From Parcubacteria group bacterium Gr01-1014_3 (GTDB lineage: Bacteria; Patescibacteriota; Minisyncoccia; UBA6257; WO2-44-18), in NCBI GenBank assembly GCA_007376445.1, contig VMGF01000003.1, positions 31,024 to 95,023 on the forward strand: a stretch of DNA of 64,000 nucleotides, in the 5' to 3' direction. Shown here piece after piece: positions 61-56,086 of the stretch. How positions within the stretch are numbered: position 1 is the first letter of the stretch; each line of letters starts with the position of its first letter. Both the position numbers and the translations under genes were made by a program. Below the pieces are notes generated by a model. That model had not been told where the DNA came from. It made no database searches and worked only from the letters and a program-made list of their open reading frames with translations.

Positions 61-525
61 TTACTTCTTTTTCGTGTAGTTTAAAACTATCTTCTGCCCA
101 TCCTTCATTACTAAATTACCCAATTCAAGGCTTGGCTTCTCATCCACGGTCATTACTACATCATATCCCTCTCGCTCAATGGTTTTACCCCAAAGGCCGA
201 AAAATTCTCCCAGCAGATAGTCGCGGGCAACCTGCGCCTCAATGTGAATAGTTCCGGTGGTGTCATGCATATGGATCGGACGGTGACAGCTACCCTCCAA
301 GCCAAGGTCGGCCGGAATCGGATCATCTTCGCCATCAACCAAAATTTTCAGCACTGGATGCCAGTGTAGGGCCAGCTGCACATTCGGGAGTAAGCAAGGC
401 AAGTTCGCGACATTCACGGTACTCGCGGTGCCGTTAGATCCGCCCTTTAATTTCGGCCCAACAAAAACTACCGCCATCACCAAAACTACCGCTCCAATTA
501 CCCAATTTTGATATTTGCTCATCAT
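61..525 (-). CDS. hypothetical membrane-anchored His-rich protein (N-terminal TM helix; HWHP / HRPIHMH motifs suggest metal binding)
   Basis: ORF track; N-terminal hydrophobic helix; no family recognised. Confidence 0.4.
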   Translation of the reverse strand: MMSKYQNWVIGAVVLVMAVVFVGPKLKGGSNGTASTVNVANLPCLLPNVQLALHWHPVLKILVDGEDDPIPADLGLEGSCHRPIHMHDTTGTIHIEAQVARDYLLGEFFGLWGKTIEREGYDVVMTVDEKPSLELGNLVMKDGQKIVLNYTKKK

Positions 526-609
526 AGTGGTTTTATAGTAATATAAATCTGCTTAATGGGCAATTGCTCATTAACTTGCGGGGTGTCCCATTAGACGATC
601 CCGCAATAT

Positions 610-680
610 TGCGGGATCGTCTAATGGTAGGACGTCGCTCTCTGAAAGCGAAAATTTTGGTTCGATTCCAAGTCCCGCAG
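610..680 (+). tRNA. tRNA-Gln (anticodon CTG)
   Basis: Manual cloverleaf: acceptor TGCGGGA/TCCCGCA, D-arm GTCTAATGGTAGGAC, anticodon loop CTCTGAA, T-arm TTTGG-TTCGATT-CCAAG, discriminator G. Confidence 0.7.
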
Positions 681-738
681 CATATAGAGTTGGCTTAGCG
701 AGGAACGAGCTTAGCAACTCTTATGCCCCGCCATAGGC

Positions 739-1011
739 GTGGGCAAAAAAACTATGTACTATGTCTATATTCTTGAGTGCCAGGATAAAACGCTTTACAC
801 CGGAATTACTACCGATATCCAACGCCGTTTCAAAGAGCATAGTCTGGGAATAGGAAGCGCGTACACCAGGGCCAAAAAAGTAAATAAAGTTTTATATACC
901 GAGCAATTTAAAACAAGAAGCGAAGCTCAAAAGCGTGAAGCCGAAATCAAAAGCTGGCGCCGCGATAAAAAAATAAAATTAATAAAAAAGACCCGCAAGG
1001 TTTTACCTTGA
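739..1011 (+). CDS. GIY-YIG nuclease superfamily protein (UPF0213/YhbQ-like)
   Basis: YVYILECQDKTLYTGITTDIQRRFKEH is a classic GIY-YIG N-terminal motif. Confidence 0.8.
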   Translation: MGKKTMYYVYILECQDKTLYTGITTDIQRRFKEHSLGIGSAYTRAKKVNKVLYTEQFKTRSEAQKREAEIKSWRRDKKIKLIKKTRKVLP

Positions 1012-1741: not shown

Positions 1742-1774
1742 AAAAAAGACCCGATAGCTACCGGGTCTTTTTTA
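1742..1774. terminator. bidirectional rho-independent terminator (GACCCG...CGGGTC with A-run and T-run)
   Basis: Hairpin plus flanking A and T tracts between convergent genes. Confidence 0.7.
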
Positions 1775-3109
1775 TCTCCCCCACTTCCTTCTTCCAAACT
1801 GCTTGCTTGGGCCGGAAAAACCACTCGGGCGAGAAGATGGGCGTCCACCGCCAAAACCTGGGCGGGGTGCTTGCCCGCCGTGGCGGGGACCACCAAAGCC
1901 TGGCCTGCGACCAAAACCGGGACGGCTACCAAAACCTGGCCGACCACCTTCAAAGGCTGGCCGAGCTAACCTAACCGGCGCGCGATGCGGCGGAAGCTGT
2001 GGAACTTTAGAAAGCGGCAAAGCGCCACGCATCAGACGCTCGATATCCCGGACATCACCCTTCTGATTCGGCTCGGCAAAAGAAATAGCGTGACCCTCTT
2101 CACCGGCCCGGCCTGTGCGGCCAATGCGATGGATATAATCCTCGGCGCTTTGCGGAAGATCAAAGTTAATGACCAGCTCGATGCCTTTTACATCAATACC
2201 GCGAGCGGCGATATCCGTGGCCACCAGAATCCGATAACGTCCATTTTTAAAACCCTCCAAGGCATCCCGGCGCTGGCCAAGAGAACGATTAGAATGCAGC
2301 TCTGCTACCGTGTACCCAAAGGTACGAACTGACACGGTGATCTTTTTGGCGCCATATTTTGTGCGAGTGAACACCAAGACTGAACCTTTATATTCGCCCA
2401 ATAATTTTTCTAAAAGACGGACTTTGTCCATTTTTTCCAAAAAGAAAAGCTCGTGAGTAACTTTAGCCGCGGCGGTGCCTTGCGGAGCTACTTCCACGCG
2501 AAGTGGCAACCTCATCACCGATTTTGCCATCGATACGATACTTTCCGGCATCGTCGCGGAGAAAAGCATGGTCTGTCGCTCACGCGGTACCACGGCAAGA
2601 ATACGATTTAATTGCGGCGCGAAACCCATGTCCAACATTCTATCCGCTTCATCCAATACCAAGACCTCCACACCAGAAAGCGAGACGGTCCTTTGCTGAA
2701 TATGATCCACGATCCTGCCCGGAGTGCCGATGATAATGTTCGGATTTTTCTTTAGCATGCTCATTTGACGGCTCATTGAGTCGCCACCGATCACGATCAC
2801 GGATTTCAAACCAAGCGGGCCGGCGATCTTTTCAAAAGTTTCATGAACTTGATAAGCCAATTCCCTAGTAGGCAAAACTACCAAGCCCAACTTGCCTTTA
2901 AGCGCGGCCTGGATCATCGGGATACCAAAAGCGAGCGTCTTACCGGTGCCGGTCTGCGCGATACCCATCAAATCCTTGCCCTCCAAGGCAGACGGAATAC
3001 ACCTCTCCTGAATCGGTGTTGGGGTCGTAAAATTGAGCTTATCTAGCAACGCTAAGATATTGGGAGCGATGCCTAATTTGTAAAAACCGGAAGATTCATT
3101 CACGCCCAT
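1772..3109 (-). CDS. DEAD-box ATP-dependent RNA helicase with C-terminal Gly/Arg-rich (RPGFG) tail
   Basis: AQTGTGKT (motif I), PTRELA, VLDEADRMLDMGF (DEAD), SAT, HRIGRTGR motifs. Confidence 0.9.
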   Translation of the reverse strand: MGVNESSGFYKLGIAPNILALLDKLNFTTPTPIQERCIPSALEGKDLMGIAQTGTGKTLAFGIPMIQAALKGKLGLVVLPTRELAYQVHETFEKIAGPLGLKSVIVIGGDSMSRQMSMLKKNPNIIIGTPGRIVDHIQQRTVSLSGVEVLVLDEADRMLDMGFAPQLNRILAVVPRERQTMLFSATMPESIVSMAKSVMRLPLRVEVAPQGTAAAKVTHELFFLEKMDKVRLLEKLLGEYKGSVLVFTRTKYGAKKITVSVRTFGYTVAELHSNRSLGQRRDALEGFKNGRYRILVATDIAARGIDVKGIELVINFDLPQSAEDYIHRIGRTGRAGEEGHAISFAEPNQKGDVRDIERLMRGALPLSKVPQLPPHRAPVRLARPAFEGGRPGFGSRPGFGRRPGFGGPRHGGQAPRPGFGGGRPSSRPSGFSGPSKQFGRRKWGR

Positions 3110-9041: not shown

Positions 9042-9852
9042 TGATTTTGAAAAGTTTCGCGGCGTTTTTATACATTACATATTCCATATCCGTCTTGGAA
9101 ATTCCCAGCTTTTTCACATATTTAATATATTCTTTCGGACCAGCGAGCGGCCAATCCGTGCCGAAAATAAGTTTACGGGGCGTCTGTGAATACGCGATCA
9201 GCTCCTTGATCTTCTGTATCGTCATTTTGCCATAAGGCGAGTTAAACCCGTCATGCAAAAACAAACCGGAAATATCGGCATAAACATTCGGATTCCTATA
9301 CAGAACTTCGGCGCAGTCCATCATCCAGGGATTCCCAAGATGCGCTATCACTATCTTTAGATTCGGAAAATCTACTGCCACCTCATCAACACCGAGCGGA
9401 TGCGCGTATTTCACTTTCGCGAAAGTCTTGTAGGCGAGCGTGTCTCCTGTATGGAAAATTACTGGTACGCCCAGTCGGTCGCACATTTCATAGATCGGTC
9501 GCGCGACCGAATCGCCTGGATAGAAATGCTGATAACCGAGGTAAAGTTTAACTCCGACGATCTTTTTCAGCCGGATCAAAACCTCCAGCCGATCCAAATC
9601 TTGCTTGGTGTATTCAGACACGTTCAAAGAACCAATCACATGCAGATTTGAAAGTTCTTCGGTTAATTTGATAAGCGTGTCCGTGGAGGGACCAGTGCCA
9701 TCCTCGCCTCGCCAATTCGCGATCACCAACGCGTGATCCACTTTATTCTTCTTCATCTCCGCTAAAAGAGCGCTTCTTATTTCTTCATAGGACTTTTTAG
9801 CGAACGGAGTATTTTCCAGCTTTGTTATGTGTGTGTGCGCGTCTATGATCAT
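9034..9852 (-). CDS. metal-dependent amidohydrolase (amidohydrolase-2 / TIM-barrel family)
   Basis: IDAHTH N-terminal metal-binding motif, HTGD, IAHLG motifs. Confidence 0.65.
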   Translation of the reverse strand: MIIDAHTHITKLENTPFAKKSYEEIRSALLAEMKKNKVDHALVIANWRGEDGTGPSTDTLIKLTEELSNLHVIGSLNVSEYTKQDLDRLEVLIRLKKIVGVKLYLGYQHFYPGDSVARPIYEMCDRLGVPVIFHTGDTLAYKTFAKVKYAHPLGVDEVAVDFPNLKIVIAHLGNPWMMDCAEVLYRNPNVYADISGLFLHDGFNSPYGKMTIQKIKELIAYSQTPRKLIFGTDWPLAGPKEYIKYVKKLGISKTDMEYVMYKNAAKLFKINV

Positions 9853-9854
9853 GG

Positions 9855-9927
9855 AGCCACCTCCCGGAATCGAACCGGGGACCTTTGCTTTACGAAAGCA
9901 CTGCTCTACCAGCTGAGCTAAGGTGGC
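9855..9927 (-). tRNA. tRNA-Thr (anticodon CGT), copy 1
   Basis: Manual cloverleaf on minus strand: GCCACCT...AGCTGGTAGAGC...loop TTCGTAA...TTCGATT...AGGTGGC; CCA may be encoded (9852-9854). Confidence 0.7.
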
Positions 9928-9934
9928 TTTGACG

Positions 9935-9966
9935 TTATATTATAACATTTCCCGAGTTTTTCCAAA
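9935..9966 (-). promoter_or_regulatory. sigma70-like promoter for tRNA-Thr copy 1 (TTGGAA -35, extended TGTTATAAT -10); duplicated at 10236-10280
   Basis: Minus strand reads TTGGAAaaactcgggaaatgtTATAAT 8 nt before the tRNA 5' end. Confidence 0.55.
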
Positions 9967-10075
9967 GAAAATAAGAGCAGGTGACGAGAATCGTCCGGTC
10001 ATACGACCGGACAGCCCAGTCGGATGACTGGGCGAACTCACGTCTCTACTTTACCCCGCACCTTTTCTCGATTAG

Positions 10076-10147
10076 AGCCAGAGAGAGGAGTCGAACCTCC
10101 AACCCCTCCCTTACGAAGGGATTGCTCTGCCATTGAGCTACTCTGGC
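10076..10147 (-). tRNA. tRNA-Thr-like (anticodon CGT), copy 2, flanked by 35-bp inverted repeats
   Basis: GCCAGAG..GCTCAATGGCAGAGC..loop TTCGTAA..GGAGGTTCGACTCCTCT..CTCTGGC; 27-43 mismatch. Confidence 0.6.
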
Positions 10148-10181
10148 AAATTTTATACGTGATCGAGAAAAGGTGCGGGGT

Positions 10182-10218
10182 TTACGAAAGTAGTGTTCTA
10201 CCACTGAACTATATCGGC
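10182..10218 (-). pseudogene. tRNA 5'-half fragment (acceptor, D-arm, anticodon stem-loop CTACT-TTCGTAA), no 3' half
   Basis: GCCGATATAGTTCAGTGGTAGAACACTACTTTCGTAAA then runs into inverted-repeat sequence; no complementary 3' acceptor nearby. Confidence 0.45.
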
Positions 10219-10284
10219 GTCTCTCTTTATTTAAATACTAGGTCATATTATAACATTTTGCGGATTTTTTCAAAGAAAATAATG

Positions 10285-10356
10285 AGCGGATAACGGGAGT
10301 CGAACCCGTGTCTGATCCTTGGGAAGGATCCATAATAGCCGTTATACGATACCCGC
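10285..10356 (-). tRNA. tRNA-Gly (anticodon CCC)
   Basis: GCGGGTA..GTATAACGGCTATTAT..GGATCC-TTCCCAA..ACGGGTTCGACTCCCGT..TATCCGC. Confidence 0.75.
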
Positions 10357-18411: not shown

Positions 18412-18440
18412 AAAACCCCCGGTCAATTGACCGGGGGTTT
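18412..18440. terminator. bidirectional terminator AAACCCCCGGTCAATTGACCGGGGGTTTT
   Basis: Perfect 10-bp stem with A and T runs. Confidence 0.75.
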
Positions 18441-18461
18441 TAATAAAACATTAAATTCAAA

Positions 18462-27204: not shown

Positions 27205-27780
27205 ATGTCGCTTACTTATAATGAACTCAAACCTGGCGCTGTCTTCATGTATGAGGGTCAGCCGTATGAAGTCTTGGAATTCGAGTTTTTGCGCATGCAA
27301 CAGCGTAAACCAGTGGCGCAGACCAAGATCAAAAACCTAGTGACGGGTAAAATTTTGGAACGAAATTTCCATCAAAACGAAACCTTTGAAGAAGCGGAGA
27401 TCGAAAAGCACCAGATCAAATATATGTATAATAGCCGCGGAGAATACTGGTTCTCCGAGCCGAAGGATTCATCCAAGCGCTTCTCAATAAAAGAAGAGGC
27501 TTTGCCACCGGCGGTTAGATTTTTGAAAACAAATACCGAAGTTACGGCCAACAAGATGGGAGATGAGATCATCAGCGTGCAGGTACCGGTCAAAGTTGAG
27601 TTAATGGTCAAAGAGGCTCCTCCGGGCGGCAAAGGCGATACCGTGACTGGCGGTGATAAGAAAGTGGTGCTGGAAACCGGCGCGGAAGTTACCGTTCCTA
27701 TGTTCGTGAATACTGGGGATATTATCAGGATCAATACCGCGACGGGGCAATATACAGAAAGAGTTGAGAAGTCCAAATAA
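27205..27780 (+). CDS. efp: elongation factor P
   Basis: KOW-like N-domain (VFMYEGQPYEVLEF) and two OB domains. Confidence 0.85.
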   Translation: MSLTYNELKPGAVFMYEGQPYEVLEFEFLRMQQRKPVAQTKIKNLVTGKILERNFHQNETFEEAEIEKHQIKYMYNSRGEYWFSEPKDSSKRFSIKEEALPPAVRFLKTNTEVTANKMGDEIISVQVPVKVELMVKEAPPGGKGDTVTGGDKKVVLETGAEVTVPMFVNTGDIIRINTATGQYTERVEKSK

Positions 27781-27784
27781 AAAA

Positions 27785-27805
27785 CCGCTCAGTGAGCGGT
27801 TTTTT
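27785..27805. terminator. terminator CCGCTCAGTGAGCGG + T-run (bidirectional, shared with tgt)
   Basis: Hairpin and T tract. Confidence 0.7.
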
Positions 27806-29012
27806 ATTTGGACTTGGCTAACTTTTCTCGAATCTTTCGGAATAGATTTTCCATAAACCAAAGGTTATGAGCGGTAGCCAAGATCGGGCCAAGCATCTCC
27901 CCTGCGCGGAAAAGATGAGCCAAATATGAACGGCTATAGTTTTTACAGGTATAGCAGCCGCACTTTTTGTCGATCGGATTTTTGTCTTCCAGATTTTTAG
28001 CGAGTTTTAAATTAAATCTTCCACCCTCCACCAAAGCCGCGCCATTCCTGGCCAGCCGGGTCGGGGCCACGCAATCAAAAGTATCCACGCCGGCCATTAC
28101 GGCTTTTTCTATATCCTCCGGAGAGCCGATGCCCAAAAGATGCCGAGGTTTTTCCTCTGGTAAAAGCGGCATAATCCAGTCCAGGATTTTATACATATCC
28201 GACTTGATCTTGCCCATCGCGCCGCCAATACCCACACCATCAAAACCTAAATTGCCGATTACTTTGGCTGATTCTTTGCGCAGATCCTCAAATACACCAC
28301 CCTGAATCACGCCATATAAAGCCTGCCGCCCAATGGGATTGGGCGAGCCTCGCCCAGAATGGGCGGGCTTTTTGTGTTTGAAAGCTTCCAGACAACGGAC
28401 CGCCCAGCGATGCGTGCGCTTCATAGAGCGCTTGGTATATTCATAGTCGTGAAGCGGAGAGGTGCACTCATCAAAAGCAAAAATTAAATCAGCGCCAAGA
28501 TTTTCCTGAATTTGGATAGATTTTTCCGGGCTGATGAAATGGCTCGAGCCGTCGATATGCGAGCGGAACTCCACGCCCTCCTCGCTGATCTTGGTCAGTT
28601 TCTCTTTTTTAGGAATCGCGTGCTCCGCCTCGCCCTCGCGTAAGACCCCGGTCTTTTCTCCGGGGAAAATATTGGCAACTTTACCCACGCCATGCTCCAG
28701 GGCCGCGCCTAAACTGAATACCTGAAAACCGCCGCTGTCCGTCCAGATCGGCCGGTCCCAATTCATAAACTTATGAAGTCCGCCCATTTTTTTAACTATC
28801 TCATCGCCCGGGCGGAGATAGAGATGATAGGTATTACAAAGCAAAGAATCAGAGCCGATTTCTTTAAGTTGATCCACGGTCAGGCCCTTGATGGCCGCCT
28901 GTGTGCCAACCGGAATAAAAGCCGGCGTATGGATCACTCCATGCGCGGTTTTTATAATGCCTAATCTTGCTCGAGTCCTATTTGATTTTTTAATAATTTG
29001 AAAGATTCCCAT
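27804..29012 (-). CDS. tgt: queuine tRNA-ribosyltransferase
   Basis: ARLGIIKTAHGVIHTPAFIPVGT N-terminus, catalytic Asp region, CCxC...H zinc site. Confidence 0.9.
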   Translation of the reverse strand: MGIFQIIKKSNRTRARLGIIKTAHGVIHTPAFIPVGTQAAIKGLTVDQLKEIGSDSLLCNTYHLYLRPGDEIVKKMGGLHKFMNWDRPIWTDSGGFQVFSLGAALEHGVGKVANIFPGEKTGVLREGEAEHAIPKKEKLTKISEEGVEFRSHIDGSSHFISPEKSIQIQENLGADLIFAFDECTSPLHDYEYTKRSMKRTHRWAVRCLEAFKHKKPAHSGRGSPNPIGRQALYGVIQGGVFEDLRKESAKVIGNLGFDGVGIGGAMGKIKSDMYKILDWIMPLLPEEKPRHLLGIGSPEDIEKAVMAGVDTFDCVAPTRLARNGAALVEGGRFNLKLAKNLEDKNPIDKKCGCYTCKNYSRSYLAHLFRAGEMLGPILATAHNLWFMENLFRKIREKLAKSK

Positions 29013-30191: not shown

Positions 30192-30292
30192 AAACCAACA
30201 CTAGCCAACATATCGCTGTGCGTTCCGAATGTATCGGCCCACGACTCACCTCTCTTTTTAAAGTACTAAATAATTATAACCAATTTATCCGG

Positions 30293-30364
30293 TGGTCTCA
30301 ACGGGAATCGAACCCGTGTTTTTGCCGTGAGAGGGCAACGTCCTAGCCGCTAGACGATAAGACC
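30293..30364 (-). tRNA. tRNA-Glu (anticodon CTC)
   Basis: GGTCTTA..GTCTAGCGGCTAGGAC..TTGCC-CTCTCAC-GGCAA..ACGGGTTCGATTCCCGT..TGAGACC; TATAAT -10 at 30376-30381 with TTGAAG -35. Confidence 0.75.
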
Positions 30365-35033: not shown

Positions 35034-35105
35034 GGGCATTTAGCTCAGTGGTAGAGCGTTCCGTTCACATCGGAAAGGTCACAGGTTCGATCCCTGTAAT
35101 GCCCA
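35034..35105 (+). tRNA. tRNA-Val (anticodon CAC)
   Basis: GGGCATT..GCTCAGTGGTAGAGC..TTCCG-TTCACAT-CGGAA..ACAGGTTCGATCCCTGT..AATGCCC-A; TTGACC-17-TAAATT promoter at 34987-35015. Confidence 0.8.
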
Positions 35106-35146
35106 CAAAAAATAAAAAAACCACCCCGCTTAGGGTGGTGTGAGTT

Positions 35147-54347: not shown

Positions 54348-54917
54348 CTAGTATTCCGCTCTTGCCTTGTCCTGAGCTGGCGGAAGAGGCTTCCCTTGAA
54401 TCGGTTCGGCCTTTTCTCTCAACTTCCGCTTCATTTCGCGAAGCGCGAGAAGCTGAACCACATCAACACGACCGATGGTCTTAATCAAATCATAAGTCTC
54501 TTGGTCAAGGTGAATGTAACGAACATCCTCCCCTTGACCAACATAAACACGAAGAACTCGCTTCTTATCCCATGCGTATGTCGCACTCACTCTCGCGTTC
54601 ACATAGCTCACGAGCTGTTCGTCGGTAAGCGTTGGTCCCTGTGCCGCCTCATCGGCTAGCCGATGAGGCTTGATGCAGTCCTCATCATAGGCCTGATAAA
54701 TGGCAAGTCCCAGCCCTGAAACTACAACAGCAATAATGAGTATTGGCACCAATGACGCAAGAAGCTTCATTGAAAAAATCCTCTTAAAAATACTCGGCCG
54801 GCGAAGCTTCACAAGCTCCGCCTCTTGCTCTCCGTTCTTCGCCTTAAGTCCCTCAATCAAATGCTCGCACTCCTCCATCGTCATACCTTGATCGCCGACC
54901 TCTACATCATCAGACAT
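54348..54917 (-). CDS. hypothetical membrane-anchored protein carried on the dnaE 3'-end insertion
   Basis: ORF with single TM. Confidence 0.4.
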   Translation of the reverse strand: MSDDVEVGDQGMTMEECEHLIEGLKAKNGEQEAELVKLRRPSIFKRIFSMKLLASLVPILIIAVVVSGLGLAIYQAYDEDCIKPHRLADEAAQGPTLTDEQLVSYVNARVSATYAWDKKRVLRVYVGQGEDVRYIHLDQETYDLIKTIGRVDVVQLLALREMKRKLREKAEPIQGKPLPPAQDKARAEY

Positions 54918-55015
54918 TTGCCGCCTCCTTGCCCCGCCATCGGCGTGGGCTGAAAAAAGGTTGTAAACTAACTGCTGGATATGTTAACCAATTTCCTTGA
55001 ATTTGTCAAATCATC

Positions 55016-55047
55016 CCACCCCACTATCACATGTGATAGTGGGGTGG
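55016..55047. promoter_or_regulatory. 32-bp perfect palindrome CCACCCCACTATCACATGTGATAGTGGGGTGG overlapping the promoter (TATAAT at 55048-55053) of the HTH gene
   Basis: Palindrome immediately followed by TATAAT and an 11-nt leader. Confidence 0.7.
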
Positions 55048-55064
55048 TATAATATTCATTACTT

Positions 55065-55544
55065 ATGATAATCAACAATAAAAAGCTGATTGGTAAATCA
55101 GCAGAAGATTGGACCGAGAAACTTTGGCTAAAGTTAATAGAAAAAGTTAGTCAAACAAATAATGAAGAGGCCACGAGAAAACTGATTGAGCACCTACTTA
55201 GCGCTGATGAGAAAAAGATGATCGCAAAAAGACTCGGTGTTATTGCGCTAATAAAATCTGACAAGTCTTATAAAGAAATCAGTGAAATTCTATGGTTGTC
55301 CCCCAATACCATCAGCACGATCAAAAAGAACATTTTAGGAAATGATGGAAATTATAAGAGTTATCGTAAATTTTATGGCGGGCCGAAAAAATGGAGCGCG
55401 GATATAAAATACGAAAAACCTTTTTGGGAAGACTTCAATCTATTAGAATTTATTGACGATTTGCTTCCGAGATATAGGGGTATAGGACTATTGAGCTCGC
55501 CGGACGTTGCCGCGAATCATACATATCGCAGAAGGCGAAAATAA
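55065..55544 (+). CDS. helix-turn-helix DNA-binding protein (sigma region-4 / TrpR-YerC-like HTH), probable regulator binding the flanking palindromes
   Basis: LSADEKKMIAKRLGVIALIKSDKSYKEISEILWLSPNTISTIKKNI HTH. Confidence 0.5.
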   Translation: MIINNKKLIGKSAEDWTEKLWLKLIEKVSQTNNEEATRKLIEHLLSADEKKMIAKRLGVIALIKSDKSYKEISEILWLSPNTISTIKKNILGNDGNYKSYRKFYGGPKKWSADIKYEKPFWEDFNLLEFIDDLLPRYRGIGLLSSPDVAANHTYRRRRK

Positions 55545-55557
55545 GGCCTCAATCAAT

Positions 55558-55585
55558 CAGCCACTATCACATGTGATAGTGGCTG
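55558..55585. promoter_or_regulatory. 28-bp perfect palindrome CAGCCACTATCACATGTGATAGTGGCTG downstream of the HTH gene
   Basis: Third copy of the palindrome family. Confidence 0.7.
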
Positions 55586-55592
55586 GAAAATA

Positions 55593-55671
55593 AAGTCCTG
55601 GTCGTAAGCGGGAAAATGAGCTGGCGTAACGGCGAACAGAAACTCATCTGTAATAGCGCGGTGGAAATATA
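55593..55671 (+). pseudogene. duplicated 3' end of dnaE (encodes KVLVVSGKMSWRNGEQKLICNSAVEI*), direct-repeat partner of 54231-54310, with its own terminator at 55668-55700
   Basis: About 85% nucleotide identity to the real dnaE 3' end. Confidence 0.65.
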
Positions 55672-55684
55672 AATGCTCCGGTAA

Positions 55685-56086
55685 TTACCGGAGCATTTTT
55701 TTATTTAGAGCTTCTTCGAGCAAACCCACAACGCAATCATACCCACCCTTTTTTGCCCAAAAAATCGCAATACTGTCCCCGGCACGAGGATCGGCGCCAT
55801 GGGAAAGCAATATTCTCACAAGCTCATAATTACCCGCATTGGCCGCACAGCTTAAAGCATAGTCGTTTTGAGCGTGTACGTTTGCGCCGTTTTTTAAAAT
55901 GAATTCGGTCAGCTCGGAATTTCTGGTCAAAAGCCAGACTTCCCAGTCTTCTCGTTTTCGATCATGTATGGTCATAATTACTTCTTCGAGTGACGCCGAC
56001 GCACCGAAAGCTTCCAAGAAATCGGCGCGGGCTTCTACGCATGCACCCATAACTTCAAGTTCTTTGAGGGTAATGATTTTTTGCAA
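55685..56086 (-). CDS. ankyrin-repeat protein
   Basis: ALSCAANAGNYELVRILLSHGADP repeats. Confidence 0.7.
   Translation of the reverse strand: MQKIITLKELEVMGACVEARADFLEAFGASASLEEVIMTIHDRKREDWEVWLLTRNSELTEFILKNGANVHAQNDYALSCAANAGNYELVRILLSHGADPRAGDSIAIFWAKKGGYDCVVGLLEEALNKKMLR

Follow-up and report, generated by a model that had tools for sequence, protein, structure and literature searches.

A perfect 40-bp palindrome at the start of a Patescibacteria tRNA-Gln gene: a probable templated inverted duplication in a rearrangement hotspot beside a GIY-YIG gene

The element described here lies in a stretch of 64,000 nucleotides (nt) from Parcubacteria group bacterium Gr01-1014_3 (Patescibacteriota; contig VMGF01000003.1, positions 31,024–95,023 of the forward strand), referred to below as the window. 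Reaching into the start of a tRNA-Gln gene with anticodon CUG is a perfect 40-bp palindrome, of which the left arm, CCATTAGACGATCCCGCAAT (588–607), and the right arm, ATTGCGGGATCGTCTAATGG (608–627), are 100% complementary with a spacer of 0 nt. A search of the 64 kb with the 20-mer arm, allowing up to 3 mismatches, returned the two arm sites only, with 0 matches in shuffled sequence, and the longest perfect hairpin arms in random shuffles measured 12 nt, compared with 20 nt here. The palindrome, which had been reported in a first-pass annotation of this DNA, is real and far beyond chance.

The tRNA gene is called by ARAGORN (610–680/681) and by Rfam (RF00005, 61.5 bits against a gathering score of 29), placing it among the bacterial tRNA-Gln genes as a CUG cloverleaf above the Rfam tRNA threshold, and the minimum-free-energy fold of the isolated 71-nt tRNA is the cloverleaf. 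It follows from this call that the right arm consists of ‘AT’ and tRNA positions 1–18; it covers the 5′ strand of the acceptor stem, the 5′ strand of the D stem and most of the D loop. Directly upstream of the left arm, the start of the tRNA recurs as a degenerate direct copy, TTGCGGGGTGTC, which we refer to as copy A and which the first-pass annotation had already suspected to be a third copy; when copy A is fused to the remainder of the gene, the tRNA-Gln call persists. Downstream of the tRNA, again as that annotation had proposed, is a GIY-YIG gene (PF01541, E = 2.9e-20, residues 1–74 of 85). Its product is matched by PDB entries 1zg2 and 1ywl, both UPF0213 (E about 1e-16), and belongs with the UPF0213-type GIY-YIG proteins, which comprise a catalytic domain of about 80–100 residues and no other domain. 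The features of the locus are collected in Table 1.

Table 1. Features at the tRNA-Gln locus, in window coordinates.
Feature	Position	Strand	Basis
Open reading frame (ORF), 154 residues, no Pfam or NCBIfam match; divergent upstream neighbour, used as anchor for orthologous loci	61–525	−	ORF, domain scans
Intergenic and 5′-coding stretch, putative overlapping divergent promoters	515–564	.	Identity profile; hexamers read by eye
22-bp palindrome TTAATGGGCAA/TTGCTCATTAA, 1 mismatch; right arm (565–574) is the inverted flank copy	553–574	.	Complementarity
43-nt insertion relative to the closest orthologue, L248; GCAAT direct repeat at both ends (560–564, 603–607)	565–607	.	
Copy A, degenerate direct copy of tRNA −1 to 12 (TTGCGGGGTGTC compared with TTGCGGGATCGTC)	576–587	+	
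Left palindrome arm, perfect inverted copy of ‘AT’ and tRNA 1–18	588–607	−	
Right palindrome arm, ‘AT’ and tRNA-Gln positions 1–18	608–627	+	
tRNA-Gln, anticodon CUG, intact cloverleaf	610–680	+	ARAGORN, Rfam
Imperfect hairpin AGAGTTGGCTTAGCGAGGAACGAGCTTAGCAACTCT between tRNA and GIY-YIG gene	685–720	+	By eye, no tool call
Small GC-rich hairpin TGCCCCGCC-ATA-GGCGTGGGCA right before the GIY-YIG start codon	724–746	+	
GIY-YIG catalytic-domain protein, 85 residues, UPF0213 type; sole GIY-YIG gene of the window	754–1011	+	

Orthologous loci were found through homologues of the 154-residue neighbour protein, and their contigs were read (exact look-ups of the 154-residue and 153-residue neighbour protein returned no record). 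Common to these loci is a near-invariant block, ...TTTGCTCATCATAGTGGTTTTATAGTAATATAAATCTGCTTAATG..., with 97–100% identity, compared with 62–90% in coding DNA. In L248, of which the neighbour protein is 93% identical, the intergenic flank is 100% identical to that of the window; it reads GGGCAAT-ATTGCGGGATCGTCTAATGGTAGG..., with the tRNA directly after it and no arm. The window has the same arrangement with 43 extra nucleotides inside the GCAAT repeat. In L250 and L251 (neighbour protein 77%) the sequence GAGCAAT-ATTACGGGGCGTC-CCATTAGACGATCCCGCAAG runs to the contig end; in it a degenerate tRNA start leads into the same arm, again inverted and identical to the left arm over 19 nt. The contig of L253 (74%) ends after a perfect flank palindrome, TTAATGGGCAATTGCCCATTA. 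In L252 (75%) the flank palindrome is followed by TTGCGGGA, 22 nt, TCGTCTAATGG, a 38-nt hairpin and TAGGACGT, leading directly to the ATG of a GIY-YIG gene, and in L255 (57%) ATTGCGGGATCGGCTAAC-TTGCCCCGCCAAATTT likewise precedes the ATG of a GIY-YIG gene, beyond which is a second tRNA-Gln start with a different acceptor strand. Both L252 and L255 thus carry a broken 5′ fragment of the tRNA and then a GIY-YIG gene. The more distant loci L254 and L255 are without the arm; at L254, which shows no palindrome, hicAB-like genes separate the neighbour gene from the tRNA. The homology of L249 stops inside the neighbour gene, which makes it uninformative for the junction.

The flank palindrome, in the window TTAATGGGCAATTGCTCATTAA (553–574), is perfect in L253; in L252 the mismatch lies on the opposite arm, and L248 and L250 lack the palindrome. 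It overlaps the putative −35 element of the divergent gene, and an ‘inside-out’ relative of it, TGCCCTTAAGCTTAAGGGCA, lies 9 nt upstream of the tRNA-Gln of L257, a locus found through its GIY-YIG protein.

Between the conserved block and the tRNA every lineage has a different structure. This interval can therefore be described as a rearrangement hotspot, at which the palindrome is one of several variants. The first-pass annotation had held that orthologous loci lacking the arm, with no rearrangement to go with it, would point to a recent random duplication; L248 does lack the arm, and the remaining orthologous loci are rearranged too.

The 18-nt start of this tRNA-Gln is widespread in Patescibacteria and occurs in some Actinomycetota; 129 tRNA-Gln genes with an identical start were recovered from 126 loci. 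The longest inverted match within the 120 nt upstream of these 129 genes is 8 nt, compared with 18–20 nt in the window, which rules out the palindrome as a general property of this tRNA-Gln type. The palindrome pattern TAGACGATCCCGCA-N(0–12)-TGCGGGATCGTCTA had 0 matches in 241 million metagenome records of the Joint Genome Institute (JGI), the conserved intergenic motif TAGTAATATAAATCTGCTTAATG had 0 matches in metagenome contigs, and Rfam gave no family at the locus beyond tRNA. A repeated palindromic element of the repetitive extragenic palindrome (REP) or miniature inverted-repeat transposable element (MITE) kind was rejected, the arm being single-copy in the 64 kb and having 0 matches in JGI metagenome contigs. 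An intrinsic bidirectional terminator was also rejected: no A or T runs flank the palindrome and a terminator scan gave no site at 588–627, and other long palindromes of the window (27769–27815 and 40096–40137) do have flanking A and T runs. The processing or regulatory structure entertained in the first-pass annotation finds no support, as the arm is absent from L248 and from the 129 tRNA-Gln genes with the same 5′ end; a conserved regulatory RNA leader was set aside on this absence, the 0 metagenome matches and the Rfam result of tRNA only. Special conservation of the left arm between lineages was not significant (1 change in 20 positions, against 2 in 12 and 1 in 12 in the neighbouring stretches), and the promoter block next to it is just as invariant (100% conserved), so that little can be read from the arm being identical between lineages. 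The palindrome thus appears to be a lineage-specific DNA rearrangement and is probably no conserved regulatory device.

The best reading of the locus, to which we assign a probability of about 0.6, is a lineage-specific templated inverted duplication in the hotspot adjoining the GIY-YIG gene. The ancestor would have resembled L248, with the flank ...TTAATGGGCAAT directly followed by the tRNA start ATTGCGGGATCG...; in L248 this flank–tRNA junction holds a 10-bp palindrome (GCAAT followed by ATTGC). A replication or repair polymerase would have jumped to the opposite strand and back, or a break would have undergone fold-back repair. One step would have taken synthesis forward through tRNA position 12, with a strand switch at position 18, a return to −2 and resumption at −2, yielding ATTGCGGGATCGTC + CCATTAGACGATCCCGCAAT + ATTGCGGG..., that is, a duplication–inversion–original order of copy A, left arm and intact tRNA. 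In a further step, 10 nt of the flank would have been copied in inverted orientation after GCAAT, generating the 22-bp palindrome next door. Copy A would have acquired a few later changes, and the perfection of the arm may reflect either a recent event or mutual homogenisation of palindrome arms.

Applied to the L248-type sequence, a model with these two insertions is 201 nt long and differs from window positions 501–700 by 3 substitutions and one 1-nt deletion, all four differences falling within the two new non-arm segments. A single template switch for the whole 43 nt was rejected; only 20 nt of reverse complement are contiguous in L248-type sequence, and two events are therefore needed. 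The insert is the reverse complement of the adjoining sequence at 20 of 20 positions with zero spacer, and a few strand switches on an arm-less allele, with the pivot GCAATATTGC available in L248, account for it, a pattern that reads as the signature of short-range template switching or fold-back repair.

Template-switch mutations, of the quasipalindrome or fold-back type, share several properties with the window. Their inserts are exact reverse complements of adjoining sequence, and they pivot on a pre-existing short palindrome, as GCAATATTGC would be in L248. They produce a duplication–inversion–original order and an expanded perfect inverted repeat, which here a sister lineage is without. 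According to the literature, template switching homogenises and expands inverted-repeat arms (PMC13100816; PMC5941160; PMC7202029). The window differs from them in its net insertion of 34 + 10 nt, as opposed to an in-place correction, and in the nature of the copied segment, the 5′ third of an apparently functional tRNA gene, which gives rise to a trap at the RNA level. It would also have required at least two events and later point changes, under a mechanism read from the sequence.

The consequence for the tRNA depends on where transcription starts. In L248 only 41 nt lie between the start codon of the neighbour and tRNA position +1, so the tRNA promoter must lie in the conserved block. Candidate promoters read there by eye are TTGCTC-18-TAATAT in the rightward direction (515–544) and TTGCCC-17-TACTAT in the leftward direction (563–535). 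A scan gave no internal promoter that would shorten the leader, and reading 564–609 by eye gives 3/6 hexamers at best; with no better promoter candidate in the insertion, the leader most likely spans copy A and the left arm. Transcription from about position 551, in the conserved block, would then produce a 58-nt leader and trap the 5′ half of the tRNA in a 20-bp helix. In the predicted fold of 551–690 (minimum free energy of −64.0 kcal/mol) this helix displaces the D arm, and copy A pairs with the 3′ acceptor strand of the tRNA. The suggestion of the first-pass annotation that the leader could sequester the 5′ half of the tRNA is thus borne out by the minimum-free-energy fold, which holds the 20-bp hairpin. 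With the full leader, the native cloverleaf accompanied by leader hairpins lies 15.6 kcal/mol above that fold, and the predicted mean probability of acceptor pairing is 4e-10 with the window leader compared with 0.99 with an L248-type leader. As the left arm is made before the 3′ half of the tRNA, kinetics should favour the trap too. Provided that the leader is transcribed, these models predict impaired, not regulated, maturation of tRNA-Gln(CUG), and the palindrome is then probably a burden on the tRNA.

The GIY-YIG gene beside the tRNA has parallels at other loci. A GIY-YIG profile built from 120 homologues was run on 120 genome loci (L128–L247) chosen for tRNA-Gln and detected 16 GIY-YIG ORFs, 12 of them within 200 nt of a tRNA-Gln (binomial P about 1e-9 for a 10% zone, in loci preselected for tRNA-Gln); one further GIY-YIG ORF in these loci lies between tRNA-Glu and tRNA-Lys. 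At L257, the one locus approached from its GIY-YIG protein (77% identical to that of the window) with no foreknowledge of its surroundings, a tRNA-Gln is likewise followed 78 nt on by the GIY-YIG gene. This order, with the GIY-YIG gene downstream of an intact tRNA-Gln, is seen in the window, L257, L191, L203, L166, L161 and L204. A 5′ fragment of tRNA-Gln, then the GIY-YIG gene, then an intact tRNA-Gln or its start is seen in L154, L131, L243, L137, L180, L205 and L255, and L252 begins alike, with a relic and then the GIY-YIG gene, within which its contig ends. The 5′ fragments at such loci are usually interrupted by a GC-rich hairpin, at positions 7–21. Relics of tRNA of at least 16 nt occur at 7 of 13 GIY-YIG-adjacent loci and at 6 of 104 others (P = 4e-5), and some of the latter six could be ordinary tandem paralogues. 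Relics without a GIY-YIG gene are seen in L171, L174, L187, L246, L196 and L163. The nucleases at these tRNA-Gln loci are 30–50% identical to each other, and those of the window and L255 are 36% identical despite the common neighbour gene.

The clearest arrangement is that of L131 (1700–2800, minus strand). Here the D loop of a tRNA-Gln with acceptor strands UGCCAGA/UCUGGCA is interrupted by an element that has inverted ends of 13 bp, CCCCGCCAAATTT...AAATTTGGCGGGG. Carried within this element are a GIY-YIG gene and an intact tRNA-Gln with acceptor strands UGCGGGA/UCCCGCA. A second interruption of the outer tRNA, in the anticodon loop, is a solo hairpin of 28 nt that shares the ends of the element. 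Each insertion replaces TGG; restoring TGG at both sites gives a tRNA that ARAGORN accepts, which the pieces as they stand do not. The tRNA-Gln relics of L171 and L243 are likewise interrupted by the hairpin ends of the L131 element; in L255 its left end comes after the relic, and the contig stops ahead of any right end. In L156 a GIY-YIG gene and an intact tRNA are followed by a relic with a perfect 18-bp palindrome after G10. The window is connected with these elements by its small hairpin, TGCCCCGCC-ATN-GGCGTGGGC, which is present in two copies (724–746 and 54930–54952) and is related to the CTTGCCCCGC...GCGGGGTGAAG element within the broken tRNA-Gln genes of L131, L171, L243 and L255.

Some searches made in this connection had negative outcomes. 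Four viral GIY-YIG relatives, 41–53% identical, have no tRNA within 1.5 kb; an Rfam scan of ten related loci at the gathering threshold gave tRNAs and one unrelated LOOT RNA only, with no intron family; and the only homologue of a Zn-ribbon ORF (L256) stops short of the GIY-YIG gene. Literature searches found no paper linking UPF0213 to tRNA-Gln or describing the association of GIY-YIG genes with broken tRNA-Gln.

As side observations on these loci, both small hairpins of the window lie in 5′ untranslated regions, that of the GIY-YIG gene (plus strand) and that of a 189-residue ORF (54348–54917, minus strand), where the hairpin is beside an AAGGAGG ribosome-binding site. In L164, permuted tRNA-Gln fragments (a piece with the T arm and 3′ acceptor strand, then a piece from the D arm to the T stem) are located about 250–330 nt downstream of its tRNA-Gln, beside a divergent GIY-YIG gene. 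In L203, L174, L243, L156 and L131 the flanks of the tRNA-Gln are complementary over about 6–19 nt and would extend the acceptor stem of the precursor, as in AAATGCTTTTTCGCAAAGC-tRNA-TTTGCGAAAAAGCATTT of L203.

Taken together, these loci suggest that tRNA-Gln genes are broken and replaced time and again by cassettes associated with GIY-YIG genes or by hairpin elements; copy A and the left arm of the window may be footprints of such damage and repair; the breaks at the window would then be linked to the adjoining UPF0213 GIY-YIG gene or its hairpin elements. Against such a link to a nuclease cassette, the relic of the window is the only inverted one at these loci. The first-pass annotation had raised the possibility of a palindrome used by a mobile element: the palindrome itself, which is single-copy, lends this no support, while the locus as a whole does fit the wider pattern of GIY-YIG genes, hairpins and broken tRNA-Gln. 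A bolder proposal, which we regard as speculative and rather doubtful, is that UPF0213 GIY-YIG genes and GC-rich hairpins are selfish cassettes that break Patescibacteria tRNA-Gln genes in the D arm or anticodon loop and provide or retain a substitute tRNA-Gln, whose acceptor stem is often a different and compensated one. This would amount to a natural ‘cleave-and-rescue’ system, of which the palindrome would be one footprint.

A templated inverted duplication has to be weighed against several observations that speak against it. The 607/608 junction, which joins the left arm to the tRNA, is found in this assembly only; the junction between copy A and the left arm recurs in two contigs from two other sample records (L250 and L251), which may share reads. 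The arm is common to the window and L250 and missing from L248, which is the closer relative by its neighbour protein, so that loss, recurrence or exchange is required. The direction of change, too, is read from the comparison, and L248 could instead be the product of a 43-nt deletion between the GCAAT repeats. The left arm is intact at 20 of 20 positions, compared with 3 changes in 13 positions of copy A (Fisher P = 0.05), a weak hint that the arm is maintained. The GIY-YIG protein, at 85 residues, has no DNA-binding domain. As regards the trap, a sigma-70 scan gave no strong site at 515–564, where the hexamers read by eye are weak, and CAG makes up 65% of the glutamine codons in long ORFs; with CAG as the majority codon, a crippled tRNA-Gln(CUG) would be costly unless there is another copy outside the window.

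Among the alternatives, the replacement of the gene by a mobile cassette deserves most attention and is possible, if considerably less probable than the templated duplication. Copy A and the arm would here be the remains of an older resident tRNA-Gln broken in the D-arm region, the insert would have brought in today's tRNA-Gln, either by itself or together with the GIY-YIG gene and the hairpin, and the palindrome would be the insertion junction. Relics accompanied by an intact gene or its start are indeed common elsewhere (L131, L156, L154, L137, L180, L205, L243 and L255, with L252 showing the relic and the GIY-YIG gene up to its contig end), their breakpoints at positions 7–21 embrace those of the window (12 and 18), and the acceptor stems of relic and intact gene often differ, with a compensated 3′ strand (L131, L174, L187). 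Copy A has UGCGGGG, as does the tRNA of L257, compared with UGCGGGA in the present gene, and the GIY-YIG proteins in the same neighbourhood are just 36–50% identical. All other relics are direct, however, and the arm of the window alone is inverted; copy A differs too little from the present tRNA start for an origin to be assigned, boundaries of a cassette cannot be drawn in the window, the gene beside the tRNA is the same as in L248, and local copying in two steps already fits within 4 differences. Selection for the arm as a functional leader, which would delay or time the maturation of tRNA-Gln(CUG), with copy A as partner in a three-way switch, or would give an RNase an entry site, we consider improbable. 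It would draw on three mutually exclusive pairings (copy A with the left arm, the left arm with the 5′ half of the tRNA, and copy A with the 3′ end of the tRNA), on a z score of −6.7 for the precursor fold, on the arm being perfect where copy A is not, and on its 19-nt identity in L250 and L251, this last being of the limited value noted above for an arm next to so invariant a promoter block. The arm is nevertheless absent from the closest orthologue and the 129 other tRNA-Gln genes, there is no covariation to draw on, copy A and the arm of L250 form a stem with an A–C mismatch, Rfam matches tRNA only, and the misfold is favoured by the full 15.6 kcal/mol with no evident ligand or partner to reverse it.

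Still less likely is an artefact of assembly or library preparation, in which the 607/608 join would be a misjoin via reverse-complementary k-mers among co-occurring strain variants. Besides the restriction of the join to this contig and the severe predicted effect on an apparently important tRNA, such an origin would accord with the ends of related contigs, which fall exactly at the palindrome centre in L250 and L251, inside the tRNA in L248 and inside the flank palindrome in L253; the Logan contig L121 ends at window position 652 and is identical over the part read (652–1090). The 20-nt arms are shorter than the k values usual in the final round of assemblers, so the join needs spanning reads, which counts against an artefact, as do the junction of copy A and the arm in the two other sample records and the colinearity of the sequence on both sides of the centre with orthologous loci. 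A scar left by an integrase-mediated genomic island at an attachment (att) site in the tRNA gene is the least credible of the alternatives. As at the att sites of integrative elements, a partial copy of the tRNA gene adjoins the intact one, and a degenerate direct copy lies upstream. Att repeats, though, are direct, usually derive from the 3′ end, mark the far end of the island and come with an integrase; in the window the exact repeat is inverted, touches the gene and derives from the 5′ end, the direct copies enclose 22 nt only, and no integrase was found among five neighbouring ORFs scanned against Pfam. Of the three readings offered by the first-pass annotation, a recombination scar thus comes nearest, with its att-like character given up.

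As to other known systems, the tRNA gene cluster of phage T4 houses a free-standing homing endonuclease of the GIY-YIG family, SegB, which the literature ties to non-reciprocal transfer and rearrangement there (PMC2330249; PMC13096335). The likeness to the window lies in a GIY-YIG gene by tRNA genes and in its variable presence or position among relatives with disturbed flanks: in the window and L257 the gene follows the tRNA, and in L255 and L252 it precedes the tRNA and stands behind a relic. SegB, a phage protein, is larger, includes a part that binds DNA and has been shown to cleave at specific sites. This architecture of catalytic and DNA-binding domains is not that of the window protein, which is an 85-residue catalytic domain only, encoded on a bacterial chromosome. 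Disrupted archaeal tRNA genes, with non-canonical introns or split tRNAs, bear comparison with the related loci and not with the window. In L131, L171 and L243, as in those genes, interruptions of the D loop or anticodon loop are flanked by short helices; the interrupted copies differ in that they do not rejoin (TGG is missing at both sites of L131), and they look like pseudogenes because an intact copy lies beside or inside them. In Patescibacteria, inserted DNA that interrupts tRNA genes has been described in the form of self-splicing group I introns, few of them with endonuclease genes, the Patescibacteria examples named being in tRNA-Asn and tRNA-Asp (PMC13011429). A term search of its main text gave no ‘Gln’, and its excerpted passages contain no ‘GIY-YIG’.

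Further features of the window touch none of these subjects directly. The perfect palindrome core CCACTATCACATGTGATAGTGG has three copies (37350–37379, 55016–55047 and 55558–55585), two of which bracket a 159-residue ORF (55065–55544); the copies could be operators or element ends. Palindromes formed by a GC stem between an A run and a T run are perfect at 27769–27815, 40096–40137, 18412–18441 and 55671–55698 (28–47 bp) and 94% complementary at 1740–1775 (36 bp), and are probably bidirectional intrinsic terminators. A 114-residue ORF (1394–1738) is bracketed by 27-nt direct repeats (1345–1371 and 1778–1804, 93% identical); the segment is wholly missing in L256, hence an insertion/deletion polymorphism. 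Repeats of about 15 nt with 18–42-nt spacing (CCAAAACCTGG...) at 1851–1964, in the 3′ part of a DEAD-box helicase gene (1772–3109, minus strand), encode the Gly/Arg/Pro-rich C-terminal tail of the helicase. All six tRNA genes of the window (610–680, 9852–10356, 30291–30364 and 35034–35106) have C as the first anticodon base (CUG, CGU twice, CCC, CUC and CAC), and the two tRNA-Thr(CGU) and the tRNA-Gly(CCC) are clustered.

If the palindrome arose as a templated inverted duplication, it would be a natural case of a tRNA gene whose start has been remodelled by such an event so that the precursor traps itself, and this precursor may be useful as a substrate for asking what leader structure RNase P and tRNA folding tolerate. 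With CAG as the majority glutamine codon, the host would either pay the cost or have a workaround. The palindrome itself is of modest interest, and the association of GIY-YIG genes with broken tRNA-Gln is the more novel lead. Cleave-and-rescue, if true, would give a function to the long-uncharacterised UPF0213 family; and if the nuclease causes the breaks, that function would be directly testable and the tRNA genes of reduced genomes would be battlegrounds of selfish DNA.

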